This document shows positions 12,768 through 52,727 of a stretch of DNA of 64,000 bases, piece by piece. This DNA comes from Candidatus Auribacter fodinae (GTDB taxonomy: Bacteria > Auribacterota > Auribacteria > Auribacterales > Auribacteraceae). A program made the translations under genes and the position numbers. The notes beneath the pieces were generated by a model. It was not told the DNA's origin and made no database searches. It saw nothing but the letters and a program-made list of their open reading frames with translations. Positions within the stretch are counted from its first letter, which is position 1. The number at the start of each line of letters is the position of its first letter. The DNA lies in the NCBI GenBank assembly GCA_003599815.1, contig QZJZ01000105.1, positions 7,174 to 71,173 of the forward strand. Direction: 5' to 3'.

Positions 12768-12921
12768 TTGGGAGTGCTGAAAAAGATTCTAAGTTCCTCT
12801 TTTAAGATGTCATCACAAGGAGCGTTAGCGGCGTGGTGATCTTAAAATGAATAAAGCTGAGATTGCCACAGCCCCTTTGGGGCTTCGCAATGACATTCTC
12901 TTGTGACTTTTTCATCGTTCT
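12768..12921 (+). repeat. Novel ~150-bp intergenic repeat, copy 1
   Basis: It is 85-90% identical to the copies at 14744-14895 (inverted), 41218-41354 and 52573-52727. It ends 37 bp before the ATG at 12958. Confidence 0.65.
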
Positions 12922-12957
12922 AAATTTATATGATATACAACAGGACAGGAGCAATCC

Positions 12958-14559
12958 ATGCGATCAATAATACATCTGGCGTTATTACTGACACTCGCGG
13001 CAGTCATATTTTCAGGCTCGCTCAGGGCGGACGATACTATCAACTTGGACGGCAGTTATTTTTACGGGGGGTTCAGCAGTCATTCGCCATATCCGTACGA
13101 ACCGTACACAGCCATCGGTGACCAGTACATATCCGGTTCAAGCATGGTGCTGACGCTCAACTTCTCGGACGATCCGCCATCTCAAACGTTCCTGACAATC
13201 ACCAACACGTTTTATGACAGCGAAGGATGGCTCAACCTCATTGTAGAGCTCGATAACGAGACATATCACGAAATAGGGATAGCGAACGACTGGCTCGCCA
13301 TATTTGTTATGCGCGACCCGGGTGTGGATGAAATACTTGACATAACATACAGCCTCAAGAAAAAGACTGCGCCCACTATTGCGGAAATCGCGGGCGAGTA
13401 CTCTATTTTCGGGCATTATTCCGGCGTGGGCAGTGATGAAATGTGGAGTTCATCCATGAACGGCGCCGTCACTCTGGGGCTGGATGGTTCTCTCACATAC
13501 AGCGTTACACCTGATTTCGGCGACACGGAAACAGGGGCATCAACATACACTCTTAACGCCTCTACCTCCACCATATATGTAACAGGCGTCGGAGAATTCC
13601 TTATCGGCGAAGGCGGTATGTTAATGCGCTTTGACAGGGATGCTTCAGACAACGAACTTTTCTATGAAATTCTGGTAAAACGGTCGTCAGGGAAAACCCT
13701 GGCTGATTTTGAAGGGTGCTGGAAATTCCAGGCGTTCGCGGCAGGCGATAACACCAGAGCGCCTTACACCGCATGGGGGTTAGCGGTAGTTTTTAATGAC
13801 GGAACCTGCCTTGTATCCAACGACTACTACGGGTATACCAGCGAGACCGTATCTGCAGTCATTTCCGCTTCTGACAACGGGGTGTTTACGGTAACCAGCA
13901 ATCTCGGGTACGAATATACCGGCATACTGAGCCCGGCATCCGATGCGGCAATCATGCAGATCGCCATTGACGAACTCTACCACTCGGTAGGCACTGCCAT
14001 AAAGATACAGCTCGACCCGTCGGACGATAATGACAACGACGGCATCAGCAACAACATGGAATTCGCGCAAAAAATCAATCCTCTTAACCCTGATACCGAC
14101 TCAGACGGCATGCCCGACGGCTGGGAACTCGCGAATACCCTCAGCCCCCGCGATAACGACGCTGAATCCGACACTGACCTTGACGGGCTCACCGCTCTGC
14201 GGGAATACAGCCTCAACACCAACCCCAACAACGATGACTCCGATAACGACGGGTTTAAAGACGGCGACGAAATCACCGCAGGCACGAATCCGAATGACAA
14301 TATATCCTTTTTTACAATGGTTTACATCAATCCCCGGACAAACACCCTCTGCTGGGTAGGCGCAACTACTGCCAGCTACAGGATGTCATGGAAAGATTCA
14401 TTTGACGAGTTCTGGCATGAAGTAACGCTATCGTCGGACGAACTGGTGTTTCAGTCAGATACTGTATCATACACAGATAACGGCGACGACACTTCTGTTC
14501 CGGCAAGACTGCCTCTCAATGAAGCAAATAAACGATTATACAAAATTACCGCATACTAA
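12958..14559 (+). CDS. secreted protein with thrombospondin-type-3-like Ca-binding Asp-rich repeats
   Basis: It has a signal peptide and six or more DxDxDG(x)xD/N motifs (e.g. DPSDDNDNDGISN, DTDSDGMPDGWE, DDSDNDGFKDGDE) in the C-terminal third. Confidence 0.5.
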   Translation: MRSIIHLALLLTLAAVIFSGSLRADDTINLDGSYFYGGFSSHSPYPYEPYTAIGDQYISGSSMVLTLNFSDDPPSQTFLTITNTFYDSEGWLNLIVELDNETYHEIGIANDWLAIFVMRDPGVDEILDITYSLKKKTAPTIAEIAGEYSIFGHYSGVGSDEMWSSSMNGAVTLGLDGSLTYSVTPDFGDTETGASTYTLNASTSTIYVTGVGEFLIGEGGMLMRFDRDASDNELFYEILVKRSSGKTLADFEGCWKFQAFAAGDNTRAPYTAWGLAVVFNDGTCLVSNDYYGYTSETVSAVISASDNGVFTVTSNLGYEYTGILSPASDAAIMQIAIDELYHSVGTAIKIQLDPSDDNDNDGISNNMEFAQKINPLNPDTDSDGMPDGWELANTLSPRDNDAESDTDLDGLTALREYSLNTNPNNDDSDNDGFKDGDEITAGTNPNDNISFFTMVYINPRTNTLCWVGATTASYRMSWKDSFDEFWHEVTLSSDELVFQSDTVSYTDNGDDTSVPARLPLNEANKRLYKITAY

Positions 14560-14743
14560 CGCACATCATCCATCGGCACATAACTCTCACAGCGGCAAGA
14601 GCAGGCAATAATAAATATTTTATTGTTTTTATGTCAGGGCATTATTATTCGCTTGTGATGCATGATAACCGGTTTATTTCTATTTGCCTTCTTATTAAAC
14701 TGTGCTATTGTTACAGTATATTGATAACATCCAATTAAAATAT

Positions 14744-14895
14744 GGGACCGATGAAAAGTCACAAAAAAATGTCATTGCGAAGCCCGAAGTGTCTGCGGCA
14801 ATCTCAGCTCGATTCATTTTGAGATCACCACGCCGCTAACGATCCTCATGATGACAGCTTAAGGAGAAATTGATAGACTTTTTCAGCGCACCAAA
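14744..14895 (-). repeat. Novel ~150-bp intergenic repeat, copy 2 (inverted)
   Basis: This is the reverse-complement copy and the most divergent, with a 1-nt indel in the core. Its edge is 20 bp from the kinase ATG at 14916. Confidence 0.65.
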
Positions 14896-14915
14896 TATTT
14901 CTATCGGAGACCGGC

Positions 14916-17450
14916 ATGGAGTTGTATGGATATCTGATTAAATGTGAAGCGGTTCTATCCGCATTTCTCATTGTTTACCTGTTTTTCTTTCTTGTAAAGG
15001 TTCCTTTTTGCAAGCATCTCATTTCCGCCGCGGCTTTTTTTGTCCTTTTATTTGCATATAATGCCGCGTCAATTAAATTAAACTCACCTGTAAATGAAGG
15101 TACTCCATATTTCTGGCACAGGATACAGCTGGTATCGGTGCTTCTTGTTCCGGTGTCGCTCATCTGGTTTATTTACCGGTTTTCAAGTAACCTCGACTTA
15201 TACCGAAAAGCGAGTAAACTTTTAACGGTTTTGTTATGCCTGTCCGCTCTGTCTGCGATGCTCGTTCCCGGCAACGCGCTGTTTGCGAACCAGTCAGGTC
15301 AGGGGTCTGCATTCGGCTGGAATATACTGCTGTACGCCCTGATTATGCCTGTATTTGCATCATATTATTTCCTTATTTACGTCACCTTTTCCAAATCCGT
15401 ATATAAACGACAATTTATGCGCATATTATTCCTTTCGGCATTTTCAATGGTTGCCGCAGGATCGGCGGCGTACTTCGCGTTTCATCTCAGCGTGTTGACT
15501 GGAAACGCCTACTTTGAGTATTCCGCCGCCAGCATGTTCATTGTGGTCATGTTTCTTTTGACCGATCAATTTTCCTGTAATATACAGGGATCCGACCTGA
15601 AACGCAATGTTGAGCTTCAGTACAAACTGCTGATGGAAAACGTGCCCATTAAAATGTTTTATAAAAACACGCATTCCGTGTATGTATTTTGCAGTAAAAG
15701 TTTCGCCCGCTTGATGAATGTATCGCCTGCTGAAATCGCTGGTAAGACCGACTGCGATTTAATGCCGAAACACCTCGCTGAAAAATACCGCTCTGACGAC
15801 AGGCGGATTATGGCGGAAAAAACAACCGAGGAGTTTGATGATGAATTCCTTGAGGACGGGCAAATAAAAATAGCAAGAACCACTAAAACTGCCGTACTGA
15901 ATGAAAAAGGTGAAGTGATCGGTATCCTTGGATCTTTTATCGACGTCACCGAACGCCGGCAGGCAGAAAACCTGCTCAGAAACAGCAAACAGGAAATATC
16001 GCTCCTGCTCAATAACCTTCCAGGTATGGTATACAGATGCAAAAACGACCATTCATGGACAATGACATTTGTCAGTGATGGATGTAAAGACCTTACCGGA
16101 TACAGGAAAGAAGACCTGCTTGGTAACAATGCCGTCTCTTACAACGACATCACTCACCCCGATGACCGGAAGTATATTTGGGATACCATTCAGAAACACA
16201 AAGAAAAAAATGAGCCATACCAGCTCGTTTACCGGATAAAAACCGCTGGTGGAGAAGAAAAATGGGTGTGGGAAAGAGGTTGGTTCATATTTGACTCAAC
16301 AACCGGGAATTTCCTGTATCTGGAAGGGTTTATTACAGACATAACCGCACAGAAAAACACTGAGCAAAAACTGAAGGAAAGCGAACAAACACTGAGAACA
16401 ATCCTTCAAGCCGCTCCGATCGGGATAGGTTTAATCACCAACCGTATCTTTAAATGGGTAAACAATCGGATGGCACAGATGGTCGGGTACACCCCCGATG
16501 AACTTGTCAATAAAAACGCGCGAATGCTGTATCCATCAGAAGAAGAATACCTTCGCGTCGGAAGAGAAAAACACGCGGATGTACTGAAAACCGGGTTTGG
16601 TCAAATTGAGACTCAGATGGTTCATAAAGACGGGCATCTGCTCGATATCCTTCTAAGTTCAGCATCTCTCGTGCATGGCGATTTGTCCGCCGGAATGATA
16701 TTCACCATGAACGACATTACCGAACAAAAAAAGGCACAAGATCAATGCAATCTCCTTATTGATAAACTTGAGCGCCAGAACGCTGAACTGGAAAATTTCA
16801 CGTATACCGTGTCACACGATTTAAAAAGCCCGCTTATTACCATAGAAGGGTTCGTCGGGTTCCTGAAACGCAACCCGGCTGTCGCGAAAAACAAGGATGC
16901 GCATGAAATGCTGGTACGCATCACCAACGCGGCGAGCAAAATGCGTAAACTGCTCGATGATTTGCTGGAATTGTCGCGCATCGGCAGGCTGGTTAATCCT
17001 TCGGAAGAATGTTCTATGAATGCCATTGTAGACGAAGCCATTGAACTCACCTCAGGCAGGCTGTCATCGCACCGAGTAACTGTCTCCGTCGCGCCGGGAC
17101 TGCCCACCGTAACCTGTGACAGACAGCGCATGGTGCAGGTTATGGTCAACCTTATTGATAACGCGGCTAAATTTGCTGAAGGAGTTGAACACCCGCAAAT
17201 CACTATCGGGATGCGCAGTACAGGCAAAGAAAACATTATTTTTGTCAGCGACAATGGAATCGGCATTGAAAAACAGTATTTCGGAACGATCTTCGGGCTC
17301 TTCAATAAACTCAACAATGAAAGTGAAGGGACGGGCGTAGGGCTGTCTCTGGTAAAACGTATTATTGAATTCCACGGCGGCAAAATTTGGGTTGAGTCAG
17401 AAGGGATTGATAAAGGTTGCGAATTCTGTTTTACCCTGCCGTTCAAATAA
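14916..17450 (+). CDS. membrane-anchored multi-PAS sensor histidine kinase
   Basis: It has about six N-terminal TM helices, three PAS/PAC-like segments, a HisKA domain (TVSHDLKSPL) and an HATPase_c domain (GTGVGLSLVKRII). Confidence 0.8.
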   Translation: MELYGYLIKCEAVLSAFLIVYLFFFLVKVPFCKHLISAAAFFVLLFAYNAASIKLNSPVNEGTPYFWHRIQLVSVLLVPVSLIWFIYRFSSNLDLYRKASKLLTVLLCLSALSAMLVPGNALFANQSGQGSAFGWNILLYALIMPVFASYYFLIYVTFSKSVYKRQFMRILFLSAFSMVAAGSAAYFAFHLSVLTGNAYFEYSAASMFIVVMFLLTDQFSCNIQGSDLKRNVELQYKLLMENVPIKMFYKNTHSVYVFCSKSFARLMNVSPAEIAGKTDCDLMPKHLAEKYRSDDRRIMAEKTTEEFDDEFLEDGQIKIARTTKTAVLNEKGEVIGILGSFIDVTERRQAENLLRNSKQEISLLLNNLPGMVYRCKNDHSWTMTFVSDGCKDLTGYRKEDLLGNNAVSYNDITHPDDRKYIWDTIQKHKEKNEPYQLVYRIKTAGGEEKWVWERGWFIFDSTTGNFLYLEGFITDITAQKNTEQKLKESEQTLRTILQAAPIGIGLITNRIFKWVNNRMAQMVGYTPDELVNKNARMLYPSEEEYLRVGREKHADVLKTGFGQIETQMVHKDGHLLDILLSSASLVHGDLSAGMIFTMNDITEQKKAQDQCNLLIDKLERQNAELENFTYTVSHDLKSPLITIEGFVGFLKRNPAVAKNKDAHEMLVRITNAASKMRKLLDDLLELSRIGRLVNPSEECSMNAIVDEAIELTSGRLSSHRVTVSVAPGLPTVTCDRQRMVQVMVNLIDNAAKFAEGVEHPQITIGMRSTGKENIIFVSDNGIGIEKQYFGTIFGLFNKLNNESEGTGVGLSLVKRIIEFHGGKIWVESEGIDKGCEFCFTLPFK

Positions 17451-17563
17451 GATCAGCCGGATACTCCTAACCTGTTCTTGTCTGAACTTTCATAAAATAG
17501 TATACTTAATTCCGTTTTTTCCGAAATATAACTAGGGGAAACATTCATAACAGGTTCATATAT

Positions 17564-19540
17564 ATGGATTTTTTAAATAAATTATTTAAACGGCCGAAAC
17601 TCTCATTAATTTTTATTGCCGTACTGCTTGCCGTATCAGGGCTTCTTGCCGTTTCCTATGTTACTGGTATCGTTGAAAGCGCGCAGTACGCTCATATTGT
17701 CGAGCAACAGATCAGTCAGGTAATTTTTTCTACCCGAATTATTGACGCGCTTCAGAAGGAACGGGCCGCCTCAGTGGCATTCTTATCACCAAACATTCCC
17801 GGCGATGAAAAATTTCTGAACGATAAATACGCACTGACCGACAAGCTGTTGGACGAGCTGGGCTCCAATCCCGCATTGGACGCTTTGAGAAAGGAAATCA
17901 GTTCAATACGGCAAAATATCGCGTCGCTCCCCCCTTCCAGCGGTTCAATTCTGGCTGTCACCGAAAACTACTCGCGTATAATCGAGGAGTTCAATAACAG
18001 TATTGTATCGCTGGTACAAAAAACACAGGATAACGAACTGAAAACAAAGTTCCATTCGTTAATTTTCCTCACACGGGCAAAAGAACTCCTCGGGCAAGCA
18101 CGGATGATGCTCCTCGCCGTTATAGACAGCAACGGGTTCACCAATCAGACACTGCAGGCATTCGCATCGTTGACCAGTGTCTTCAATTACAATATAGAAC
18201 GGTTTGTGAGCTGGTCACAGCCCGAGATCAAAAACTATTTCATATCGCATTTCAACACTCCTGCGGTCAGCAAAACCCGGGAACTGATCGAAAAAACAGT
18301 CCTGAGCTCCAGCTCAGGGGTGTTGGAAACGCACAGTAACGAATGGTGGCTCGTTTCAGGCGAAACAGCCAGTATACTTTTTGATGTGGAATCATTTACG
18401 CTCAAAGATATCACTGAAACATTGTCCCGCCTGCGGTACCGTGTATATACGCACCTCTTGAAAGTACTGTTTTTCATTGTGTTTGTCCTGACCATGCTGA
18501 TTGTATCTTCCGCGCCTCGTCAGGAAACTGCCCCGGAGGAAGACGCCCGTATGTCGCGAATATACCAGTCGCCCGTCTACCTGCTGATTCTGGTTGTGGT
18601 CTCTATTTTCGGCGCTCAGACCATATCCGCGCTCTTAATACGCAAAGGATTACTGCCGCCCTTCTCACCGATAATAACCGCCTTTATCGATTCATTGCTC
18701 ACTATGCTGATGGTTATACCTATTTTATATCTTTTCCTTTTCTGTCCGTTGATATTACATATACGACAACGCCACAAGGCTCAACAGGAACAGAAACGCC
18801 TGCTGAAAGAACTGTCCGAACAGAACGCCCGGCTGGAACAGCTGAACCGGCTTATGTCGGAATACGTCTCAGACGTATCGCACGAATTCAAAAACCCTTT
18901 GACCGTGATTCGAGAATCCATCAATATCACGCTCAAGCGCGACACCGCCAACGCTATCAAACCTCGCGACCGGCGGATGCTGGAACTCGGACGAAACAAT
19001 ACAGACCGCCTGATCCGCCTGATCAACGACCTGCTCGACCTTTCAAAAATCGAATCCGGCAGAATCACCATTCATCACACCCGCATCAACGCGTCAGACA
19101 TCATAAACGATGTTTTATCCATGTATGCCACCGCCATAGAGGAAAAGAAACTCACCGTAAGCACGCATTCCGAGGCGGAAGACCCCACAGTCGACGCGGA
19201 TGCCGACAAAATCACACAGGTTGTGATAAACCTCCTGAGCAACGCTATAAAATACACCCGCCCCGGCGACAGGATCGATATTACCATCCGCCGTACCGAT
19301 TCTTTCATGACACTGGAGTTCGCGGACACCGGCCCCGGAATAGAACCGCAGGATTTGCCCCGCATATTCGACAAATTCGAGCGCATTACCGCGGAAAGCC
19401 AGGAAGGAACAGGGCTCGGGCTCCCTATCGCAAAAGAAATCGTAGAACTGCACGGCGGGTCAATTCAGGCACAAAGCACACCGGGCAAAGGAAGCGTATT
19501 CACCGTAACATTACCCGTTCATGTGTCCGAACTGATATAG
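17564..19540 (+). CDS. sensor histidine kinase with N-terminal extracytoplasmic NIT-like sensing domain
   Basis: TM1 is followed by an approximately 250-aa helical domain (IDALQKERAASVAFLS..., typical of NIT), then TM helices, a HisKA domain (VSHEFKNPL) and an HATPase_c domain (GTGLGLPIAKEIV). Confidence 0.7.
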   Translation: MDFLNKLFKRPKLSLIFIAVLLAVSGLLAVSYVTGIVESAQYAHIVEQQISQVIFSTRIIDALQKERAASVAFLSPNIPGDEKFLNDKYALTDKLLDELGSNPALDALRKEISSIRQNIASLPPSSGSILAVTENYSRIIEEFNNSIVSLVQKTQDNELKTKFHSLIFLTRAKELLGQARMMLLAVIDSNGFTNQTLQAFASLTSVFNYNIERFVSWSQPEIKNYFISHFNTPAVSKTRELIEKTVLSSSSGVLETHSNEWWLVSGETASILFDVESFTLKDITETLSRLRYRVYTHLLKVLFFIVFVLTMLIVSSAPRQETAPEEDARMSRIYQSPVYLLILVVVSIFGAQTISALLIRKGLLPPFSPIITAFIDSLLTMLMVIPILYLFLFCPLILHIRQRHKAQQEQKRLLKELSEQNARLEQLNRLMSEYVSDVSHEFKNPLTVIRESINITLKRDTANAIKPRDRRMLELGRNNTDRLIRLINDLLDLSKIESGRITIHHTRINASDIINDVLSMYATAIEEKKLTVSTHSEAEDPTVDADADKITQVVINLLSNAIKYTRPGDRIDITIRRTDSFMTLEFADTGPGIEPQDLPRIFDKFERITAESQEGTGLGLPIAKEIVELHGGSIQAQSTPGKGSVFTVTLPVHVSELI

Positions 19541-19668
19541 CATCCTTTTTTTCCTTATTGTAAAAATAATTGAAATAAAACGGCATAAAGGTAGTCTATA
19601 CTTATGAGGCAATGATAGCGCATGTAACCCAAATGCCGCTAATGCAATAATGTCTCTCTCCTTTATTG

Positions 19669-19698
19669 GGCCGGACGCGTTTTGCGTCCGGTTTTTTA
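19669..19698 (+). terminator. Rho-independent terminator
   Basis: The hairpin ccggacgc-gtttt-gcgtccgg is followed by TTTTTTA. Confidence 0.5.
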
Positions 19699-19811
19699 TT
19701 ATTTCCATATTTTTTTCTACACCAGCTCACCCGATTTTGATACCATGTTATTCTCTTTTTCGCTATATACATAGTTTTAAGCATAAAATATCCACCAAAG
19801 GAGGCCTCACA

Positions 19812-20339
19812 ATGAATGACCTTATCCAGCGCATGATACGTGCCGCTAAACTTGATGTGACTCTCTATGAAGAGGTTGAAGCAGACACAACCGCCTTTAA
19901 ACCAGCCCTTGCCGTCGTGGCTATTTCCAGCATCGCGTCCGGTATAGGAAACCTGTATGTCGGGTTCGGCACAATGATAGGCACCCTGATAATATCGCTT
20001 ATCGCGTGGTTCGTCTGGTCATACGTCATTTTTCTGGTAGGGACAAAATTGCTCCCTGAACCTCAGACCTCGGCAGACTACGGCCAGTTATTGCGCTGTA
20101 TCGGATTTGCCAGCGCGCCGGGTGTGATCTGCGTACTGGGCATAATACCCCCTTTAAACGCCCTTGTATTTTTCACCGCCGGAATCTGGATGATTGTGGC
20201 AACGGTCATTGCAGTTCGGCAGGCGCTGGATTATACCAGCACCGGCAGGGCGGTCGGCGTTTGTGTTCTTGGTTTTCTCGCTTTTCTTGTCATACAGGCT
20301 ATTCTGGGAGTACTGTTGATCCCGTTTCATTCGGCTTAA
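19812..20339 (+). CDS. Yip1-family integral membrane protein
   Basis: It has five TM helices and Yip1/DUF1282-like topology. The start was trimmed to the MNDLIQ methionine after AAAGGAGG (the ORF track starts at 19650). Confidence 0.5.
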   Translation: MNDLIQRMIRAAKLDVTLYEEVEADTTAFKPALAVVAISSIASGIGNLYVGFGTMIGTLIISLIAWFVWSYVIFLVGTKLLPEPQTSADYGQLLRCIGFASAPGVICVLGIIPPLNALVFFTAGIWMIVATVIAVRQALDYTSTGRAVGVCVLGFLAFLVIQAILGVLLIPFHSA

Positions 20340-20369
20340 ACCCTAAGACTTGTAACAGAGGATACCGCA

Positions 20370-22077: not shown

Positions 22078-22093
22078 AAGGAGCCTTGACACC

Positions 22094-38756: not shown

Positions 38757-38890
38757 CGGAATAAAAAGATATTTACTTTACATTATTTTTAAATTTATTT
38801 AATTTTTTGCTGGACAAATTATTTCTGAGTTTGGTACCGTAAATCAACTTCATCTTGAACCTCTTCTTTTGATTTCCCCTTTTTACTATT
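38757..38890. repeat. ~130-bp AT-rich direct repeat, unit 1 (MCP/rrf2 divergent promoter region)
   Basis: It is about 75% identical to 39119-39255 and shares the cores tttacattatttt, gctggacaaatta and ttgaac. Confidence 0.45.
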
Positions 38891-39118: not shown

Positions 39119-39255
39119 GGGCATAAAAAATATTGCCTTTACATTATTTTATTTTTTATTTTTTTATTGATTTTTATGCTGGACAAATTAGTTTTGAGTC
39201 TGATAATCTTTTTTTCAGTTCATTTTGAACTTCATTATTTTTATTGTTTTTTCGT
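39119..39255. repeat. ~130-bp AT-rich direct repeat, unit 2
   Basis: It pairs with unit 1 and ends about 45 bp before the rrf2 ATG. Confidence 0.45.
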
Positions 39256-39301: not shown

Positions 39302-39757
39302 ATGTTAAAACTATCCACCCGATACAGATATGGATTGCGAATACTGGTATCCCTCGCGGATAACGGCGACTGCTATTCCTCCATAAAACACCTCTGCGAT
39401 TCGCAGGAGCTTACTGTAAAATACATAGAATCCATCATTGCCATACTCAACAAAAAAGGTATGGTGATCTCAAAACGGGGCGCGCTGGGCGGTTATAAGT
39501 TATCGAAACCGGCGGACGCAATCACCCTGAAAGAGGTACAGGAAACACTCAACGAATCTGTCTTTTTTCTGGAGTGCATTGAAAAACCGGAAACATGCAC
39601 GGATAGATCAAATTCCTGCCCTTCCCGCCTGTTATGGCTGGCTGTGAAGGCACGAATCGATGAAATCCTTGAGTCCCTGACCATTAAAGATTTATGCGAG
39701 GCAAGCAGGCTTGCGGATATTGAAACCATTATCGCCAGCAGGATACAGTCTCCATAA
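39302..39757 (+). CDS. Rrf2-family (IscR/NsrR-like) transcriptional regulator
   Basis: It has the N-terminal wHTH (YGLRILVSLA) and a three-Cys cluster (C-x6-C-x6-C) for Fe-S ligation. Confidence 0.8.
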   Translation: MLKLSTRYRYGLRILVSLADNGDCYSSIKHLCDSQELTVKYIESIIAILNKKGMVISKRGALGGYKLSKPADAITLKEVQETLNESVFFLECIEKPETCTDRSNSCPSRLLWLAVKARIDEILESLTIKDLCEASRLADIETIIASRIQSP

Positions 39758-40269: not shown

Positions 40270-41016
40270 TTATCGCCTCTTCATCTGCCTGAACAGCCAT
40301 GAGATGCCTAACAGGCTCAACAGCATGGCAGACGGTTCGGGAATAGGGCTTACAGAAAAGGTATCGAACCCCAGAGTACCTGTCAGGTCGCCCTGAGCGT
40401 TGGCAAGCCCGAACCCGATTTGCTGGGGCGCGCTGAGCATGGTCGCGAGATCAATACCTGCACCGCCGTCGACCTCGATCCAGTCATTCACATCCGAACT
40501 GATGAAAAAATAGGATTTCTGCCATTTGCTTAATCCGATGGTAATCGGGTTCTTGAGCATAAACCATGTCCAAACGCCAGTCCCGCCCTGATCGATGTAT
40601 TCACCGATAAAGAAGTGCATGGTCGCGCTCATCAGGTTAAGCGACCCGAACCCATTGGTATACACGCTTCCTATATGATTCGCGAGGCTTCCTGCCGCTC
40701 CGGCAGGTTTGTTTTGCGCATCAACAAGATACGCCGGCCAGTACATGTCTTCCACGCCCGGCTGCCATACTCCGGCTTCAGATAAATCGCAATACACATA
40801 CCCGGCATTAAGGCTTCCCGGGCCGCTGGACTGCCCGCCGGTCATCGAATGATGCATCGGCAAATCATGAAGGTACCACCCGCCGGGCTGAAGCTCGCCG
40901 TCCTCGTCCCAGTAGAGCCAGTAGTTATTGCTGGTATCCCATGTCTCTTTATACTCTGTTGCGCATACGTTCGCGGCACATAAAAGCATACTCAGAAGAA
41001 GAATAGCGTTTTTCAT
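40270..41016 (-). CDS. PEP-CTERM sorting-domain secreted protein
   Basis: It has the signal peptide MKNAILLLSMLLCAANVCA and a C-terminal IPEPSAMLLSLLGISWLFRQMKRR. The start was trimmed from 41187. Confidence 0.6.
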   Translation of the reverse strand: MKNAILLLSMLLCAANVCATEYKETWDTSNNYWLYWDEDGELQPGGWYLHDLPMHHSMTGGQSSGPGSLNAGYVYCDLSEAGVWQPGVEDMYWPAYLVDAQNKPAGAAGSLANHIGSVYTNGFGSLNLMSATMHFFIGEYIDQGGTGVWTWFMLKNPITIGLSKWQKSYFFISSDVNDWIEVDGGAGIDLATMLSAPQQIGFGLANAQGDLTGTLGFDTFSVSPIPEPSAMLLSLLGISWLFRQMKRR

Positions 41017-41217
41017 GATTTCACCTTTCTGTTTCATCAATGGATGCATTGGCGTAAAACCGGACAATAGCTTTATAACTTTTATATTACATATTTTATA
41101 ACAATTATTACAAAATTTTATTTTTCTTTTTTTTAATTGCTGTAAACTGTTTTTAACCTTGTCAACATTAATAATAAATGCATACAAACCGCATCAGCCG
41201 GGATATAAAATAAAAAA

Positions 41218-41354
41218 TTGGGAGTGCAGAAAAAGATTCTAAGTCTAATGGAGGAGCGTTAGCGACGTGGTGATCTCAAAATGAATAGAGATGAGATTGT
41301 CACAGCCCCTCTGGGGCTTCGCAATGAGATTCTCTTGTGCTTTTTCATTGCTCT
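41218..41354 (+). repeat. Novel ~150-bp intergenic repeat, copy 3 (with ~20-nt internal deletion)
   Basis: It aligns to copies 1 and 4. It lies about 225 bp upstream of the ATG at 41579. Confidence 0.6.
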
Positions 41355-41578
41355 CAAATTACATGACAGACCTACCATATGACACATGTTTTCCCTCGCC
41401 TTCTTTACTTATTTTTGCTATAATAACAGTAAGATTGAAATAGATATTTTGTGATACGGAAAACTACGTTGTAAAATCTTTGTTCTTTGAATATAATGAT
41501 CTTGATATAAAGTTAATACAAACGAATATTAATCCATTTTTTACAAAAAAAACGCATTTATCACTGGAGGATAATGCA

Positions 41579-43786
41579 ATGAAAACACTACACCATCGTA
41601 AATCCGGGTTAGGAACGTTAGTCACATGCTTTTTTGTTATCCTGTTTATCTGTCAGATCGGGCATGCCCAATCCATCACCCGCCTGATAACGGACAGTGG
41701 AACAAACACGCCCTCTGTAACGCTTACCGTTACTCCTGACAGCGGTACAACATCATATTACGTAGTTGAATTTCTGGTAGCGGAATTAACCCCGACTTTT
41801 GTTACAGACGGCGGTATAGTCAGTTATGGATCAGGGACAATCCAGTGGGGGCCTTTTGAAGATAACCTGCCCCGTACATTCTCATACAGGCTGATGGGAA
41901 GCACAACGGCTTTTGAACTGGCAGGTTTCGCAAAATTCTCCAGCGACCCGCCGGAAGTATCACCAAAGAGCTACTATAAAGTATATACTGACGGCGATAA
42001 GGTCGGTACAAATATCGCGCCGATAACCCATTCCATCTCTGTGCTGGAACCGGGCGTGGTGTATACCGTGACAACCCGTCATTTTACCGTATATAGCGGA
42101 CAACCTGTCAGCCATCCGACTTTTTATCCTGAACTTCACCTGCTTAACGGTCAGAGAAACAACATTTTAGCCATACGCGCATATCACGGGCCTGAAGGCA
42201 CTGGGTTTGCCACAATGAAAAAAACAGCTCCGTATACAACGCCGATTGAATGGAACATTCCAGAGCTGGAAGTCATTTCCGTTACCGGCACACCGATAAG
42301 CAATCCTGAAGGCATAGAGCTGACATGGACATTCCGCTTATCAGCAACCACACTGTGGGATGTATATGAAGAAAGCATCTGCCTTGGAACATTTACCATA
42401 ACCGATGCCGGCGACTACGGCGCGTACTGTGACCTTTCCAACCTGACATACACAGGCGGCATTCCAAAGGTGTTCAAAGGACGCCGGGGCATATATGTCT
42501 GGAAAGAAGGGTACTATATCGCCACGAATCCGCAGAACCAGAGAGATTTTTTCAGTTTTTGCGCCGCGCCGAAAGGCAAGGCAAATAATAAGATTGAGTC
42601 CATTATTATAGCGTTCCCTCAGGATATTAACGGAGCTGAAGCGCCGCTTTTCCGCTCATTTATCGCTGAAGCGCACAGCAGGGGCATGGAAGTCAACTTT
42701 GTGACCGGCGAGCCGGAATGGTCGTTCCTCGATAACCGCCAGATCGGGACTGATGAAATCAACAAGATATTCACCTTCAACCAGTCAGCAGTCTTTGAGG
42801 AACAATTCGACTCGATTCAGTTCGACGTGGAACCGCACGCTATCGACACCGACAACGAACCGGGTATGGAACCATGGGTATGGGAACAATTCATCCCGAA
42901 CATGGCATATTTCAAATCAGTTGTTGATCAGAACAATATAGCAACAGGCCTGAACATACCGTTCGTCGCGGCAATCGGCAACTTCTGGCACGAGGATTAC
43001 GTACCCACTGATGCGTACCCGGGTCCCGGATACGAACAGATACTCAATATCATAGACAAAGCCGCGATCATGAATTACGTAACACACAGCGGAGCGGTTT
43101 ATACCTGCCGCGAAGAGCTTGAATATTCAAGGCTTCTCAATAAACCAATTGATATTGTGTACGAAACGTTCAATACGTCGCCCACGGAATCATTCTGGTT
43201 TAACGGGAACAACGCTCTGGAAAGGACTGTCAATTCAATAGACTACGCCTATGTCGACCCGTTTTCGACTGATTATTACGAGAATTTCGGGTTTAATGTC
43301 ATTCATTATTACGAAGCGGCGGACGAAATATGGCCCCACAACGGAGTCATTAAACGGTCATACCGCCAGTTGCGCCCTGACATTTTCTCGGATCAGGAAC
43401 CGCTTGACCCGGTATATAACACAGCTCCGGTTTGTTATGTGTTGTCGCCTAATGGCGGTGAGGAAACCAGCGGACGGCGACTGACCATAACCTATTCAGT
43501 GTATGATGATAATTCCGCTGTTCCTATTTCAGTGAAATTCTATCTCCGGAATACAGCATCAGGAAGCGAGTATTATCTTGGGACACAGAGTGTGCAGGTA
43601 AGCGCTTCCACCCACATGTATTCAGGCAGTTTCAACGCTACGGTCAACGCGTATCCGGTCGGCACGGACTACAGGATCAGGATTACGGTGGACGAGCAGT
43701 CCGGTAGTCCGGCTCTAAGCAGTTTCGACTCTTCAAATTATGATTTCGCCCGTGTAGCCAGCGGCGGCGGCGGGAAAAAGAAGTAA
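41579..43786 (+). CDS. secreted hypothetical protein (735 aa), possible glycoside-hydrolase-like TIM-barrel core
   Basis: It has the signal peptide MKTLHHRKSGLGTLVTCFFVILFICQIGHAQS after GGAGGA, a C-terminal Ig/fibronectin-like region and a GGGGKKK tail. The start was trimmed from 41480. Confidence 0.45.
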   Translation: MKTLHHRKSGLGTLVTCFFVILFICQIGHAQSITRLITDSGTNTPSVTLTVTPDSGTTSYYVVEFLVAELTPTFVTDGGIVSYGSGTIQWGPFEDNLPRTFSYRLMGSTTAFELAGFAKFSSDPPEVSPKSYYKVYTDGDKVGTNIAPITHSISVLEPGVVYTVTTRHFTVYSGQPVSHPTFYPELHLLNGQRNNILAIRAYHGPEGTGFATMKKTAPYTTPIEWNIPELEVISVTGTPISNPEGIELTWTFRLSATTLWDVYEESICLGTFTITDAGDYGAYCDLSNLTYTGGIPKVFKGRRGIYVWKEGYYIATNPQNQRDFFSFCAAPKGKANNKIESIIIAFPQDINGAEAPLFRSFIAEAHSRGMEVNFVTGEPEWSFLDNRQIGTDEINKIFTFNQSAVFEEQFDSIQFDVEPHAIDTDNEPGMEPWVWEQFIPNMAYFKSVVDQNNIATGLNIPFVAAIGNFWHEDYVPTDAYPGPGYEQILNIIDKAAIMNYVTHSGAVYTCREELEYSRLLNKPIDIVYETFNTSPTESFWFNGNNALERTVNSIDYAYVDPFSTDYYENFGFNVIHYYEAADEIWPHNGVIKRSYRQLRPDIFSDQEPLDPVYNTAPVCYVLSPNGGEETSGRRLTITYSVYDDNSAVPISVKFYLRNTASGSEYYLGTQSVQVSASTHMYSGSFNATVNAYPVGTDYRIRITVDEQSGSPALSSFDSSNYDFARVASGGGGKKK

Positions 43787-44706: not shown

Positions 44707-44724
44707 TTTCCTTAAAAACTTCTC

Positions 44725-47692: not shown

Positions 47693-47695
47693 TTT

Positions 47696-49363
47696 CTATT
47701 CCTTAAATTCCCTGACCCGTTCAGCCAGTTCCTCTCCGGTTACTGTTACGTTCCCGATCTGACTGCCTGACGAATCAAGAAAAATAAATGCAGGCGGTCC
47801 AATGATGTTAAATTTTTTCACCAGTTCGGGGTTGCTGTCAAAATCAACTTCAACAAAGGTAAATTTTTTGATATCTCGTTGAAACTCTTCTGTCTCGATA
47901 ACGGTTTCCTCTATCTCTTTACAAATCGTGCACCACGGCGCTTTGAAGTCAAGCAGAACAGGTTTATCTGAAGACGCAACAACCTCATTCAAGTCAACAA
48001 CAGCCGCATCCTCTGCCAGTTCATGCCCTGATTCTATCAACGAATCAACGGTATAATACACGGTACCGCTGAGAATAAGCAGGGCGATAACTATTCCGGC
48101 AAACCCTTTTCTGCTCTCAACCGCGCTTTTCATGGACAACAGCCCTGCGGCATTCAGTCCTGCCGCCAGAGAAACGATTGAAGCAGTGATAAATATGGTC
48201 TCACCGATAAACGGGCGGGTAAAATAAAACGCCGCCCAGATAAGAATAACTCCCAGAGTATATTTCACGCGTTCCATCCATCCGCCTGCTTTCGGCAACG
48301 CCCCTGCGGCGCTTCCCGCCACAAAAAGCAGTACGCCCATGCCCCACGCCAACGCAAAAAAGTAGGCGAACCCCCGTATAATATCTCCGGTAGTAGCGAC
48401 AAAGGTTATAAGGCTGATAATAGGCCCTGATACACAGGGACCTACCACAAACGCAGATAACGCTCCCATAAGAAATATCCCTGTGTACGATCCTTTAAAC
48501 CGCGACGACAAACCCTGTATTCTGAGAGATAACGATGATGACGTCTGTAATGAAAAAACGTCAAACATAGACAGCCCCAAAAGAATGAATATGACGCCGA
48601 TCGGAATAAGCACCCACGCCGACCGGAAAAACGACGACGCCGTACTCCCCAGAGACGCCACGATAACACCAGTCAGGGCGTACACGACAGACAAGCCCAG
48701 AACATAGAGGAATGTCAGGAATATACTTTCTGATCTGGATGCTTTCTTCGCCCCGATAATCGCCACCGTTATGCCGACCATCGGATACACGCACGGAGTC
48801 AGGCTCAACAGTAATCCGGCGACAAATGAGCCGAGTATCCCCCACAATAACCCTCTGGAATACGGCGACTCCGGTTCAATATCCCCTACATCGCCTGCAC
48901 TCCTGCCAACCGCACCTTCAGGTATAATTCCCGAAAACGTAAACGCTTCTTTCTGCGGAGGGTAACAGGTGGTATCCGTACAGCCCTGAAACTGAATATA
49001 ACCGCTGAGATTCCAGCTGTCGCCCGGGTTACCATCATAGTCGTACCGGACACGGATCTCTGCCTGCCCGGTAAACACGTCCACTATGGATCCGTCAAAA
49101 TTTTCAAACGGTTTTGTCTCCGGTTTTATAACTTTCTGGCCGGACAGGTTCACAGCGGTATCGGCGTAAACCTTAAAAAAATAATCCTCACTGCTGTACA
49201 CATGGACGCCGTCACTGACATCGAGATCAATACGCAGTTCAAGATATGGTGTATCGCGCTCAACCGACACTTTCGCGACTGCCGCTGTATCAGGCTGGGA
49301 TTGAGCAGATACCAATAACGGCACTGCCAGTAAAAAAACAAGCTGAACTGCATATCGTCGCAT
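47696..49363 (-). CDS. dsbD: thiol:disulfide interchange protein DsbD (cytochrome c biogenesis/disulfide reductase)
   Basis: A signal peptide and periplasmic DsbD-alpha-like domain are followed by a DsbD TM core (CVYPMV...) and a C-terminal thioredoxin domain (WCTIC). Confidence 0.75.
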   Translation of the reverse strand: MRRYAVQLVFLLAVPLLVSAQSQPDTAAVAKVSVERDTPYLELRIDLDVSDGVHVYSSEDYFFKVYADTAVNLSGQKVIKPETKPFENFDGSIVDVFTGQAEIRVRYDYDGNPGDSWNLSGYIQFQGCTDTTCYPPQKEAFTFSGIIPEGAVGRSAGDVGDIEPESPYSRGLLWGILGSFVAGLLLSLTPCVYPMVGITVAIIGAKKASRSESIFLTFLYVLGLSVVYALTGVIVASLGSTASSFFRSAWVLIPIGVIFILLGLSMFDVFSLQTSSSLSLRIQGLSSRFKGSYTGIFLMGALSAFVVGPCVSGPIISLITFVATTGDIIRGFAYFFALAWGMGVLLFVAGSAAGALPKAGGWMERVKYTLGVILIWAAFYFTRPFIGETIFITASIVSLAAGLNAAGLLSMKSAVESRKGFAGIVIALLILSGTVYYTVDSLIESGHELAEDAAVVDLNEVVASSDKPVLLDFKAPWCTICKEIEETVIETEEFQRDIKKFTFVEVDFDSNPELVKKFNIIGPPAFIFLDSSGSQIGNVTVTGEELAERVREFKE

Positions 49364-49472
49364 GGTATTCTCCACTGTTTGCATTAATATTACCACGATC
49401 TCATATCCTGTGTATAAAAAAGGGGAGGATTTGTATGTCCCCCCCATGAAACAATTTTAAAAGAACAAGGTA

Positions 49473-49943
49473 TCATGATTCCAACGGCAGGCCGCCTTCT
49501 TTCCATGCCTTAATACCTGTCTTAAAGTAATAGACCTGAGAAAACCCCTTATCTTTCAAAAAACTCGCCGTTTTTTTTGCCGCTCCGCATTCAGCATGCG
49601 CGCAATACACCACAATAAAAGCGTCCTTCGGTACATCTTTCATTTTCGGGAAATTCGCTTCCTGACTTTTTGCCGGAACATTCACCGCACCGGGAATATG
49701 TTCAACAGCATACGTTTCTTCAGACAACGCGTCGACAAAAACAGCCTTATTACCCAGCCATAGCTGATGAGCCACAGCGGCAGACACAACCGGCAAATCA
49801 TAAACCGGCTCTTCAGTTTGAGCAAGGCACGCATGGCATCCGGGCTCAATTTCTTCTTTGTTGCCCATTGCGTATACGCCCGAAGCGGATACAGAAAGAC
49901 AGGTCGCGACAACAACAGCGGTTACTCCTAGTGAATGAACCAT
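49473..49943 (-). CDS. periplasmic rhodanese-domain sulfurtransferase
   Basis: It has a signal peptide and an active-site loop around the catalytic Cys (VVYCAHAECG). Confidence 0.7.
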   Translation of the reverse strand: MVHSLGVTAVVVATCLSVSASGVYAMGNKEEIEPGCHACLAQTEEPVYDLPVVSAAVAHQLWLGNKAVFVDALSEETYAVEHIPGAVNVPAKSQEANFPKMKDVPKDAFIVVYCAHAECGAAKKTASFLKDKGFSQVYYFKTGIKAWKEGGLPLES

Positions 49944-50200
49944 TTAACATCTCCTATGTTAAGTACCTTAGTTACATGATATTCTAAACTTTACCCTTCG
50001 ATAACTCTTTCGCTGTCCGGTTTAATCAGTGACAGCAAAAAATAAATATAGCATTATTATCTTTACAAAACAACTTTTAAGCGAATAAAATCATTTTCAT
50101 CAGACATTTATAGACATCATCTTATACAAGAGCCGATTCCGCAACATTTTTTACTGCTGAAATGTTCTCATGAATTTTTATTTTCAAAAAGGAGACATGA

Positions 50201-51169
50201 ATGAAGCGACTTATTTTCAAGCTGGCATTGGTTGTTATTTTCTGCGCTCTGCTACCATCAGCGGCACACGCCGGCGGAGCGACAACGTATCCAAACGGGG
50301 CGGAAGATTTTCTGTCAGGAGCGCTGCCTCCTCCGGGCGATTACGGCATCTGGTATTCTATTTTCTATCACGCGAACGGATTCAAAGACAACTCCGGGCA
50401 CGATTATTCTTTCGGGCCCCGCTCTGATATACGCATTACAACGTGGGCAAATGCCCTGCGCTGGATTCATGTAAGCGATGTTACCCTGTTCGGTGCAAGT
50501 ACGGGTTTTCACCTGTTTTTGCCCACGGTGCAGGCAGAATTTGATTTCGGGCACGAATTCAATGTTTTTGATGACGAAAAATTCGGATTCTCAGATCTGA
50601 TTTTCGACCCGCTTCTGCTTGGCTGGCATTTTAAAAACCTGCATATCGTCGCCGGCGTCGATATATACGTCCCTACGGGCAGGTACGATCATGAAACCGA
50701 TATCCTTAACCTCAGTTCAAAAGTATGGACATTCGAGCCTGCTCTGGCATTCACATGGTTACCCGGCCCTTTTGACATATCTGTCAAACTGATGTATGAC
50801 TTCAGCACAATCAATAACGACCACCGCATCGATCCGTACGAAGCTTTAGCTCTCAATCAGCCGGGGTTGGCTGGAACCGAAGCGTCATTGCGCCCCGGAC
50901 AGGAATTCCATTTTGATTACAATGCGGGATACAACTTCAACAAATGTTTCGCGCTTGGCGTAAACGGGTACTTCTACCGCCAGATGACCGATGACCGGAT
51001 AGATCACAACTATGTCCATAACATGAAGGGGCGCACATTTGCCATAGGCCCTGTCGCTAAATACAACTACCAGAGGTTTTCATTCGTCGCAAAAGCCTTG
51101 TGGGAAATGGAAACAAACAACCGCCCGCAGGGGCAAAGCACTTGGCTGAAAGTTATTTACGTTTTTTAA
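50201..51169 (+). CDS. outer-membrane beta-barrel protein (MetA-pathway/phenol-degradation-like transporter family)
   Basis: It has a signal peptide, alternating amphipathic beta strands, Gly/aromatic girdles and a C-terminal aromatic residue (VIYVF). Confidence 0.4.
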   Translation: MKRLIFKLALVVIFCALLPSAAHAGGATTYPNGAEDFLSGALPPPGDYGIWYSIFYHANGFKDNSGHDYSFGPRSDIRITTWANALRWIHVSDVTLFGASTGFHLFLPTVQAEFDFGHEFNVFDDEKFGFSDLIFDPLLLGWHFKNLHIVAGVDIYVPTGRYDHETDILNLSSKVWTFEPALAFTWLPGPFDISVKLMYDFSTINNDHRIDPYEALALNQPGLAGTEASLRPGQEFHFDYNAGYNFNKCFALGVNGYFYRQMTDDRIDHNYVHNMKGRTFAIGPVAKYNYQRFSFVAKALWEMETNNRPQGQSTWLKVIYVF

Positions 51170-51294
51170 TTTACTTTATATCAATCAATTACAACTATTA
51201 TGAAATTTTTTAATTTTATCGCTAAAGTCCTCATACACTTGTGCCGTTATAATAAAGGGTTCGTCTTATCATTTTAAAAGCGGAGGCTTACAAC

Positions 51295-52407
51295 ATGAAT
51301 GGTCAAAAACGTTCTGGTTTTTCCTTGTTAGAAATACTGCTTTGCTTTGCCGGGCTTTCTGTAGTAATGACAGTCATTGTGTCAGCGAGCCATCGTGTCC
51401 GCGACCACGCGCACACCACTTTATGCATGAATAATCTCCGCCAGATATCCTTCGCGGTGTCACAATATTACAACGACCATAAAGAATATCCGCGCGGATT
51501 GCCCTACGATACTCTGTCCAGCCAGCTGGACAGCTATATCGGGGCGTCTGTGTTTATCTGTCCTGAAGACAAAATGGAACTGTCAGACAGTTACAGCCAG
51601 TACTACGTGTATCGAGGCAATGACGTATCCGCCTTTCAGTATGTTATAGGATGCCCGCGCCATGCGTCCCGATCGCGTTCTGTTAATATTTTTTCACTGC
51701 AGAAAGCGCAAACCTGCAATAACGCAAAGGTTGTCGCCAACCATACTGAAATTCTGCCCGGAGCGGCAACTACCGGAACCATTACGCTTGACGATGGAAC
51801 CACCATTCAATCTGACACAGTAAAAATGATCCTGATCCAGTCTGTCAAGCTCGGCGGAGGCGCGTTGTACACTGTTGTACGGGTACCTGATACGGAAACA
51901 GGCAAAGTTACCGTAAACGCTACTCCCGGCACAAAGCTGGAAATCGTGACGCCCGCTGTTGTCGCCGGTGTAAGAGGTACTCGTTTTGTGCTGGATATCG
52001 GCTATCAGGATGACGTGCCGTACACTAACGTCAATGTTGAGGAAGGCGTAGTCGCGGTGGAACCTCTGGGCGGCGACATGATAGACGGTACATCCGTAAA
52101 AGCGGCTGGTTTCAGCCCCATATTGCTAACCAAAGGAATGTCAGTCAATATACGCAACCGGCAAAAACCTTTTCACTTTGAAGCGTTGACTGAACGTATT
52201 GTATACTTGCGTAAAAAGATCGCCGGCTACGAATCAATAGGCAAAGACAGCCAAAATGTCCGTAACTACTGCGACTGGCTGGAAAAAACCAAAACACGGG
52301 AACTCGCAGAACTAGCGGACGATTCTGATAACACAAATGAAACCGCGAGTGATACCGCGAATGACGCCGCGGTTAATAACGCGAACCCAAACGCGGCTAT
52401 AAAATAG
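51295..52407 (+). CDS. prepilin-type N-terminal cleavage/methylation domain protein with FecR-like beta-domain, paralog A
   Basis: The type-IV pilin leader is KRSG|FSLLEIL (Phe+1, Glu+5). The FecR-like motif VVAGVRGTRFVLD is present. The C-terminal tail is Asn/Ala-rich. Confidence 0.55.
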   Translation: MNGQKRSGFSLLEILLCFAGLSVVMTVIVSASHRVRDHAHTTLCMNNLRQISFAVSQYYNDHKEYPRGLPYDTLSSQLDSYIGASVFICPEDKMELSDSYSQYYVYRGNDVSAFQYVIGCPRHASRSRSVNIFSLQKAQTCNNAKVVANHTEILPGAATTGTITLDDGTTIQSDTVKMILIQSVKLGGGALYTVVRVPDTETGKVTVNATPGTKLEIVTPAVVAGVRGTRFVLDIGYQDDVPYTNVNVEEGVVAVEPLGGDMIDGTSVKAAGFSPILLTKGMSVNIRNRQKPFHFEALTERIVYLRKKIAGYESIGKDSQNVRNYCDWLEKTKTRELAELADDSDNTNETASDTANDAAVNNANPNAAIK

Positions 52408-52572
52408 ATTGATTGACAGGCGAGCGTAACAAAAGAGCTCGCAGAAAACCACCTATATTTTTCAATAAACCGCCTGCCGGATACCGCCGGCAGGCGGTTT
52501 ATTGCCTGTATGTCGCCTTATATATTCTTGAACAGTTTGATGTTACTACGCCGAATAAATTCCTTTAATACG

Positions 52573-52727
52573 TTTGGAGCGCTGAAAAAGATTCTAAATT
52601 CCTCTTTTAAGATGTCATCACGAGGAGCGTTAACGACGTGGTGATCTCAAAATGAATAGAGCTGAGATTGCCACAGCCCCTTTGGGGCTTCGCAATGACA
52701 TTCTCTTGTGACTTTTTCATCGTTCTC
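52573..52727 (+). repeat. Novel ~150-bp intergenic repeat, copy 4 (most complete)
   Basis: It lies between the two prepilin/FecR paralogs and ends 138 bp before the ATG at 52865. Confidence 0.65.

Follow-up and report, generated by a model that had tools for sequence, protein, structure and literature searches.

The repeat family dispersed through this DNA is, with a probability of about 0.9, a MITE—a non-autonomous DNA transposon of 136–153 bp that carries no transposase gene of its own. Four copies lie in the window (the whole stretch of 64,000 nucleotides that was analysed): c1 at 12770–12922 (+ strand, 153 bp), c2 at 14744–14893 (− strand, 150 bp, the inverted and most diverged copy), c3 at 41220–41355 (+ strand, 136 bp, with a deletion of 16–17 nt inside the left arm) and c4 at 52575–52727 (+ strand, 153 bp). 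Two more were found on the same 133.7-kb contig, just beyond the window: c5, on the − strand at 14613–14764 of the stretch L124, and c6, on the + strand of the stretch L126 from 18753 to about 18848–18850, where only the 5' half is present. The boundaries of c1–c4 were set by the register of the terminal inverted repeats (TIRs) and target-site duplications (TSDs). The original prediction had all four window copies in place, one of them inverted, and our coordinates refine its own; the internal deletion it reported in c3 is real, at 16–17 nt instead of ~20 nt, and it overlooked the TIRs, the TSDs and the two copies beyond the window. Pairwise identity among the copies spans 74–94%, a wider range than the 85–90% first proposed, with c1 and c4 sharing 94% and c2 matching the others at 74–82%. 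A 26-nt core pattern occurs four times in the window, against 0.00 occurrences expected from shuffles, and nhmmer --max over the window returned no copy or fragment beyond c1–c4. The density amounts to six copies in about 91 kb of a single contig, and the 3'-truncated c6 together with the internally deleted c3 represent typical decay.

The ends of the element carry the identification. Every full copy is bounded by imperfect TIRs, GGGAGYGCTGAAAAAG ... CTTTTTCATYGYTCTC, that match at 13 of 16 positions; the same agreement (13/16) holds between GGGAGTGCTGAAAAAG and the reverse-complemented right end GAGAGCGATGAAAAAG, and both ends were found in each of c1–c5. In c1, for example, the left TIR occupies 12770–12785 (+ strand, GGGAGTGCTGAAAAAG) and the right TIR 12907–12922 (reverse complement, TAGAACGATGAAAAAG). 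The similarity between the left and right ends fades beyond 16 bp, reaching at most about 17/24 in an alignment by eye. Immediately outside the TIRs, all five full copies display a perfect, AT-rich TSD of 5 bp in a single fixed register: AATTT for c1 (12765–12769 and 12923–12927), ATATT in element orientation for c2 (AATAT on the + strand; 14739–14743 and 14894–14898), AAATT for c3 (41215–41219 and 41356–41360), ACGTT for c4 (52570–52574 and 52728–52732) and AAAAT for c5. The empirical per-site probability of a 5-mer match at such spacing is 0.0013–0.003, so that five out of five would arise by chance with a probability of about 7e-12 to 1e-11, once 25 register choices are allowed for. Beyond the TSDs, the sequences are unrelated when copies are compared. 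Such a combination of TIRs and 5-bp TSDs is characteristic of a DDE-type MITE. We also observed a motif, ACAACAGG, common to the stretches that follow c1, c5 and c6 and enriched in the window (6 occurrences versus 1.3 expected); it lies beyond the TSDs and is therefore not part of the element.

Between these ends lies an inner palindromic core, which in c4 extends over 52612–52701 (+ strand) and consists of a left arm (GTCATCACGAGGAGCGTTAACGACGTGGTGATCTC), a 15-nt spacer and a right arm (GAGATTGCCACAGCCCCTTTGGGGCTTCGCAATGAC). Both arms are instances of a hairpin unit, GTCATTGCGAG...GAAGCAATC (GTCATTGCGAG...GCAATC), set as a convergent doublet. This very widespread unit is abundant beyond the element, both among unrelated bacteria and in viral contigs, of which more than 120 contain it. 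Elsewhere it occurs singly or in doublets, often with GNA triloops in its loops—a feature known from stable DNA mini-hairpins—while it is absent from Rfam, and a literature search with its sequence strings returned nothing relevant. The REPIN-like pairing of short hairpin units as a convergent doublet, the wide distribution of the same kind of unit (alone or paired) and the frequent GNA triloops would all suit a palindromic element of the REP/REPIN type, or one derived from IS200/IS605, that moves in single-stranded form through a tyrosine (HUH) transposase (RAYT). Such an origin is nevertheless highly improbable: the full copies have 5-bp TSDs in every case, whereas HUH/RAYT transposition is not known to make target-site duplications. 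Moreover, beyond the core the element continues for a further 37 nt on the left and 26 nt on the right, ending in the TIRs, and the TSDs lie outside these segments. Throughout the 91 kb read, the unit is confined to the MITE, with no occurrence outside it.

We further examined other genomes for copies, for a parent element and for empty sites. Among 185,579 reference genomes, a 22-base core pattern recovered one degenerate relative only (L001, from 'Bacterium isolate R3-B46'), a fragment that corresponds to the right-hand part of the element, lies between convergent genes and has no further similarity to the window. A loose gapped pattern gave chance matches in metagenome contigs, and nhmmer yielded no true copy among the 120 matches listed there; neither viral contigs (core pattern) nor plasmids and phages (blastn) contained a match to the element. 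A parent IS was sought through the TIRs in the window, L124, L126 and L001, with no further TIR pair found, and the 91 kb read held no transposase with matching ends. Two metagenome assemblies of the species, obtained independently, share copies c1, c2, c4 and c5, with the same sites occupied and no empty site seen. The nearest relatives, about 62% identical in Tex, are too distant for a nucleotide-level comparison of empty sites; the closest relative (L127, with a FecR homologue of 57% identity) shows partial synteny and lacks the element, and is likewise too diverged for an empty site to be read at the level of single bases. Additionally, a contig from the second metagenome begins within c1, and the long contig stops 88 nt past c6—breaks that are expected at these two copies because the repeat is dispersed.

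All copies are intergenic, even though coding sequence fills about 88% of the window, and the GC content is 36% in intergenic DNA versus 47% in coding DNA. Copy c1 sits 35 nt upstream of a gene for a TSP3-repeat protein (12958–14559); c2 lies between the end of that gene (14559) and the start of a PAS/HisKA kinase gene (14916), 22 nt from the latter; c3 separates divergent genes at 40270–41187 (−) and 41579–43786 (+), 223 nt before the plus-strand start, or 124 nt if a TTG start is taken; and c4 lies between tandem FecR/DUF1559 paralogues (51295–52407 and 52865–54037), 137 nt before the second. These gaps fit the 20–225 bp given in the original prediction, and Pfam agrees with its description of the neighbours (TSP3 Ca-binding repeats, a PAS/HisKA kinase and a DUF1559/FecR protein), with no strong domain detected in the 735-aa protein it also listed. 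Its claim that copies always stand upstream of plus-strand genes holds as a pattern and fails as a sign of regulation, since the genes are nearly all on the plus strand: the placement is what insertion between genes produces where most genes run in one direction. Five of six copies share the direction of the downstream gene, which does not depart significantly from chance (two-sided binomial p about 0.2). The occurrence of both orientations close before start codons, and of palindromes that could bind dimeric proteins, might instead point to a regulatory module in the DNA that works in either orientation, namely an array of transcription-factor sites or an enhancer-like site upstream of its targets. 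We consider this extremely unlikely, given that TIRs and target-site duplications do not bound regulatory sites, that operator sites do not evolve as sharp-edged blocks of 150 bp conserved at 74–94% between unrelated flanks, that the neighbouring genes have no function or pathway in common and that c6 retains the 5' half only.

At the RNA level, the sense strand is predicted to fold with −53 kcal/mol (z = −3.8; the antisense strand reaches z = −2.75), and in all five full copies it folds better than the antisense strand by 7–12 kcal/mol, purely through G-U pairs. This advantage could hint at selection on the RNA, but it is effectively a single observation because the copies share ancestry. The strong fold itself follows from the architecture of the element, a long imperfect palindrome made of the TIRs and the inner convergent doublet. 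Among five closely related sequences, none of 50 predicted pairs shows a compensatory double change, and the substituted cells divide into 15 that keep the pair through wobble and 15 that are unpaired. A search of the whole window against Rfam 15 at the gathering threshold gave no match; at E<=10, the best match to c4 was RT-2 (E = 0.98, 12 bits versus a cutoff of 40 bits). No terminator-like site follows any copy. A structured cis-regulatory RNA, i.e., a riboswitch-like 5' leader common to a regulon of genes for secreted or envelope proteins, would account for the stable fold, for the G-U gain on the sense strand of every copy and for the five of six copies that stand in sense orientation before a gene, several of which encode exported proteins. 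We judge it very unlikely all the same. The perfect TSDs and the TIRs show that the copies arrived by transposition, pair-breaking substitutions equal pair-keeping ones without a compensatory change, and both c2 and the related L001 fragment lack a downstream gene on the same strand. Distances to the start codon range from 22 to 260 nt with no common expression platform or terminator, and Rfam is empty; the copies are 74–94% identical with the stems included, unlike riboswitch paralogues. The original prediction was right to leave a role for RNA structure unproven and to assign the repeat to no known riboswitch or sRNA class. Of the two readings it favoured, the MITE/REP-like one stands—as a MITE, through its TIRs and the TSDs on five of five full copies—and the regulatory module finds no support, with covariation and Rfam both negative and the placement explained by intergenic insertion.

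Promoter-like hexamers and a short reading frame were inspected as well. A promoter-like site, TTGACA-17-TATAAA, lies at 12719–12747, and c1 begins about 23 nt downstream of it (by eye); in c2, a promoter-like ATGACA-17-TAGACT at 14851–14879 (+) points outward and faces the kinase gene. The only ORF of the element has 19 codons (MNRAEIATAPLGLRNDILL*); in c4 it spans 52652–52711 (+), beginning within the central spacer. Copies c1 and c4 keep the frame whole, c2 and c5 carry frameshifts and c3 has lost the stop; we judge the ORF to be non-coding. The notion of a small ORF, which is also intact in L001, was rejected on the ground that the frame is broken in three of the five full copies. Taken as a family of small genes, the repeat would encode a peptide of 19 residues (MNRAEIATAPLGLRNDILL) or an independent sRNA driven from a promoter of its own, in keeping with the unbroken frames of c1 and c4, the ORF of equal length in the diverged L001 fragment (MNKVEITKFPSVLATTSFF) and the promoter-like hexamers seen by eye before c1 and c3. 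To this idea we give next to no credence: besides the frameshifts and the lost stop, the upstream promoter-like sites are outside the repeat and differ from copy to copy, and the element has no terminator after it.

For the MITE, the following course of events is proposed. The imperfect inverted-repeat ends would be recognised and bound by a transposase that we infer to be encoded elsewhere in the genome, which would cut an AT-rich target with a stagger of 5 bp; repair of the gaps would then leave a direct target duplication of 5 bp on both sides of the element. Copies persist only in AT-rich intergenic spacers, as would follow from an AT-rich target preference combined with selection against insertions within genes, and their placement shortly before genes is a by-product of the permitted landing sites. 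The element may also influence neighbouring genes: where it is co-transcribed with the downstream gene, a hairpin of about −50 kcal/mol would be added to the 5' UTR, and a putative outward promoter at the left end (ATGACA-16/17-TAGAMT) may act on adjacent DNA, pointing in c2 toward the kinase gene. A bolder proposal, which we think unlikely, is that the MITE is not merely selfish and serves as a vehicle by which a functional hairpin doublet has reached the 5' regions of genes for envelope and secreted proteins and of a sensor-kinase operon. If so, the inserted doublet would alter transcript stability, processing or promoter activity, and the widespread unit would itself represent a nucleic-acid motif, so far undescribed, that is shared across phyla and partnered by a host or phage factor.

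These findings bear on annotation, in that the repeat is to be treated as mobile DNA rather than as a new riboswitch or enhancer. The element accounts for contig breaks in the assemblies of an uncultivated deep-subsurface bacterium and would be the first mobile-element family described for Ca. Auribacterota. Its copies flag sites of possible expression rewiring, e.g., c2 in front of the PAS sensor-kinase gene, and more may be gained by following the core hairpin unit, which recurs in many phages and in distant bacteria.

The features of the element agree with the published definition of prokaryotic MITEs, which comprises TIRs, direct repeats, AT-rich intergenic sites and stable transcript folds (PMC10969869). 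Like Correia of Neisseria, QMITE of Coxiella and MITEAba12 of Acinetobacter, it is a non-coding unit of about 150 bp with TIRs and flanking TSDs, occurs in many copies scattered through AT-rich intergenic DNA (often shortly before genes), yields a transcript predicted to form a long stable hairpin and contains an outward-facing pair of sigma-70-like hexamers. It differs from these families in having no sequence relationship to any named MITE, in residing in an uncultivated candidate phylum (Ca. Auribacterota) and in an inner core built as a doublet of a hairpin unit also found alone in many unrelated genomes and viral contigs. MITEAba12 has a TSD of 9 bp. The duplication of 5 bp seen here likewise contrasts with the TA of Correia and the 7–9 bp of QMITE2 (PMC10969869). 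TIMEs, the Tn3-derived MITEs, are about 262 bp long, usually single-copy and bounded by inverted repeats of about 38 bp that fit the Tn3-family consensus, with AT-rich direct repeats of 5 bp (PMC4133298). The present element shares with TIMEs the 5-bp AT-rich target duplication, the non-autonomous state, a predicted stable RNA fold and a G-run where the ends start (GGGAG/GAGAG here, GGGG in Tn3). However, its TIR measures about 16 bp (13/16), with weak similarity to 24 bp, its copy number is high and no Tn3-family transposase is in view; a comparison by eye revealed no inverted repeats of the 38-bp Tn3 type, and the link to TIMEs rests only on TSD length and target preference. With REPINs, the RAYT-mobilised doublets of REP sequences, the element has in common two inverted short hairpin units that, across a short spacer, together form one long hairpin. 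In contrast, REPINs have neither an outer segment bounded by TIRs nor a target-site duplication, and the element described here has both.

The repeat of ~150 nt occupies 12770-12922 (+; copy c1), 14744-14893 (-; c2), 41220-41355 (+; c3) and 52575-52727 (+; c4), and the four copies placed here by the original prediction were recovered by a repeat finder, which grouped them into one direct family and inverted pairs. The window contains four occurrences of a 26-nt core pattern, compared with 0.00 in shuffled sequences, and alignment of the copies delimits a sharp-edged block of ~150 nt whose flanks are unrelated from copy to copy. The copies are indeed alike, but their pairwise identity spans 74-94%, a wider range than the 85-90% first proposed; divergence is greatest in the inverted copy, c2, and c3 has lost 16-17 nt internally. 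Using a window protein, we matched the region to a larger contig (JGI 3300038436 Ga0394679_046267, 133.7 kb) and examined up to 10 kb past each window edge, which yielded two extra copies and hence six in ~91 kb. One of these, c5, lies at 14613-14764 (-) of locus L124, 260 nt upstream of a same-strand gene of 568 aa; the other, c6, starts at 18753 (+) of locus L126, retains only its first ~97 nt and begins 3 nt past the stop codon of a PEP-CTERM gene, with a ribosome-binding site and an ATG then following at the contig end. A contig from a second metagenome starts within c1 and the long contig terminates 88 nt past c6—breaks of the kind that assemblers produce at dispersed repeats.

With the copies anchored on two internal motifs and one common offset (6 nt 5' of GCWGAAAAAG and 5 nt 3' of CATYG), a perfect 5-bp flanking direct repeat was found in five of five full copies, in a single fixed register: AATTT on both sides of c1, ATATT of c2, AAATT of c3, ACGTT of c4 and AAAAT of c5. 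The target is an AT-rich 5-mer at every copy bearing such a target-site duplication (TSD). Because a 5-mer equals the 5-mer ~150 nt away at only 0.13-0.3% of window positions, the chance of five such duplications is ~7e-12, with 25 register choices allowed for. The ends form imperfect terminal inverted repeats (TIRs; left GGGAGTGCTGAAAAAG, right end as reverse complement GAGAGCGATGAAAAAG), which agree at 13 of 16 positions. Small size, the lack of coding capacity, TIRs, TSDs, dispersed multiple copies and the occurrence of truncated and internally deleted variants together define a prokaryotic MITE (PMC10969869), and all of these features are present here: the repeat family is a MITE. No second TIR pair able to bound a parent insertion sequence was found in the ~91 kb of A. 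fodinae DNA or in L001, a locus of the reference genome 'Bacterium isolate R3-B46'.

Of the two readings offered originally, the MITE-like element is thus borne out by its TIRs and TSDs, while an upstream regulatory module is unsupported. The latter drew on the position of the copies, and each window copy does lie upstream of a plus-strand gene; Pfam also agrees with the neighbors named, which encode a protein with TSP3 Ca-binding repeats, a PAS/HisKA kinase, a protein of 735 aa with no strong domain and a DUF1559/FecR protein. The window is ~88% coding (GC content of 36% in spacers vs. 47% in genes), and the plus strand carries nearly all genes between ~10 and 36 kb, which puts any spacer in that region upstream of a plus-strand gene. 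The placement follows from intergenic insertion into this co-directional arrangement and is not a regulatory signal. Orientation matches that of the downstream gene in five of six copies, which is not significant; c2 and the L001 fragment described below have no downstream gene on their own strand, and the neighboring genes share no function except that several encode exported proteins.

Several other features of these surroundings were recorded. Copy c4 is inserted between tandem paralogues (51295-52407 and 52865-54037; 72% DNA identity across part of their length) encoding prepilin-like proteins with a DUF1559 N-terminus and a FecR domain; in L127, a contig of the closest relative, one longer gene (582 aa) adjoining DsbD and rhodanese occupies the syntenic place. 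The octamer ACAACAGG is found just outside the right TSD of c1 (12937-12944) and c5 (L124, ~14598) and before the ATG that follows c6 (L126, ~18918). The window contains six instances of it, where 1.3 would be expected, and it may be a common 5'-UTR/RBS-context motif or part of an insertion-site preference.

The element also has a good predicted fold (-53 kcal/mol, z = -3.8), for which RNAalifold gives a long closing stem and a three-way junction; it folds well because the whole element is a single long imperfect palindrome. Comparison of the five full copies shows no predicted pair changed on both sides, and the substituted cells divide into 15 that stay paired through wobble and 15 that are unpaired, the pattern that a neutrally decaying palindrome should give. 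The good fold is not evidence for an RNA, and the earlier caution that an RNA-structure role was unproven is upheld. Likewise, Rfam returned no match for the whole window, nor for c4 at relaxed thresholds, in line with the view that this is no known riboswitch or sRNA class, and no terminator-like site was found 3' of any copy. The sense strand is more stable than the antisense by 7-12 kcal/mol in all five full copies, an advantage that comes wholly from G-U pairs (strand energies are equal with G-U disallowed) and is effectively one observation, since the copies share ancestry. It could reflect an accident of inheritance, a strand bias in mutation or weak selection at the RNA level, and we do not count it as support for an RNA role.

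A 19-codon ORF, MNRAEIATAPLGLRNDILL, with its start in the central spacer, is preserved in c1 and c4, and the L001 fragment has an intact ORF of identical length (MNKVEITKFPSVLATTSFF). Given the frameshifts in c2 and c5 and the lost stop in c3, the ORF was treated as non-coding. MITEs commonly carry outward promoters (PMC10969869), and a sigma-70-like pair, ATGACA-16-TAGAAT, identified by consensus match only, lies close to the left end on the antisense strand and points outward (12813-12786 (-) and 52618-52591 (-)). The equivalent in c2, ATGACA-17-TAGACT at 14851-14879 (+), faces the PAS/HisKA kinase gene (ATG at 14916, with GGAG 8 nt before it), to which the insertion may supply a candidate promoter.

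Three further repeats were noted in the window. A 48-nt segment at 872-919 and 2485-2532 (94% identity) lies directly upstream of two minus-strand genes that flank a ParA-like gene and adjoin a fur gene (2543-3019); on the gene strand its last bases are AAGGAGG. It includes TGATAATAAAAACCATTTTCA, Fur-box-like in appearance, and may be a shared operator or leader. Two AT-rich segments (38764-38836 and 39125-39205; 77-78% identical, ~365 nt apart) share ...TGCTGGACAAATTA.TTT.TGAGT.TG.TA within a 774-nt spacer and may be duplicated promoter/operator regions upstream of 39302-39757. Two tandem imperfect repeats of ~60 nt (CCGCACGC...TTTACATGCGTCAGA..., 73% identical) lie at 59898-60016, in the spacer between two minus-strand genes.

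A search of 185,579 reference genomes with the core pattern gave a single match: a fragment of ~85 nt in L001 (2786-2879 (-), 76% identical), which covers the right arm and the spacer together with a portion of the left arm. It sits between convergent genes, and L001 has no similarity to the window beyond it. The element itself was found in no viral contig, plasmid or phage genome, the matches listed for a loose pattern in metagenome contigs were all due to chance, and the partly syntenic L127 contains no copy; the nearest relatives available are ~62% identical in Tex.

A weak nhmmer match to an unrelated metagenome contig, L037, revealed a short hairpin unit that makes up both inner arms of the MITE: GTCATTGCGAG, a variable hairpin and GAAGCAATC. 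It lies at 52612-52646 and 52662-52701 in c4, with the same arms in c1, c2, c3 and c5, and at 4272, 4757 and 5857 in L037. The right arm (reverse complement) reads GTCATTGCGAAG-CCCCAAAGGGG-CTGTGGCAATCTC; the left has ATCAC/GTGAT in place of the common ATTGC/GCAAT, a double compensatory change. At least 120 IMG/VR viral contigs carry the unit, as do unrelated metagenome contigs, with at least 213 units in the 1.07 Mb of listed viral loci, up to eight per contig among the matches listed, and at least 34 convergent doublets resembling the MITE core. Its distal helix varies freely yet stays paired in the examples inspected by eye (covariation unscored), and GNA triloops are frequent among its loops. 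In the matches listed, units are enriched outside ORFs and show no orientation preference relative to the next gene (37 same, 29 opposite). Rfam has no family for the unit, and the ~91 kb of A. fodinae DNA contains none outside the MITE copies.

The 5-bp AT-rich duplication and G-rich ends of the element most closely recall the Tn3 family and the TIMEs derived from it (PMC4133298); however, the ~38-bp Tn3-type inverted repeat is absent, and we rejected filing it there. The MITE family adds a new member of a known element class in a poorly known phylum, and the hairpin unit within it behaves like REP-like small palindromic elements, but with an unusually wide distribution.
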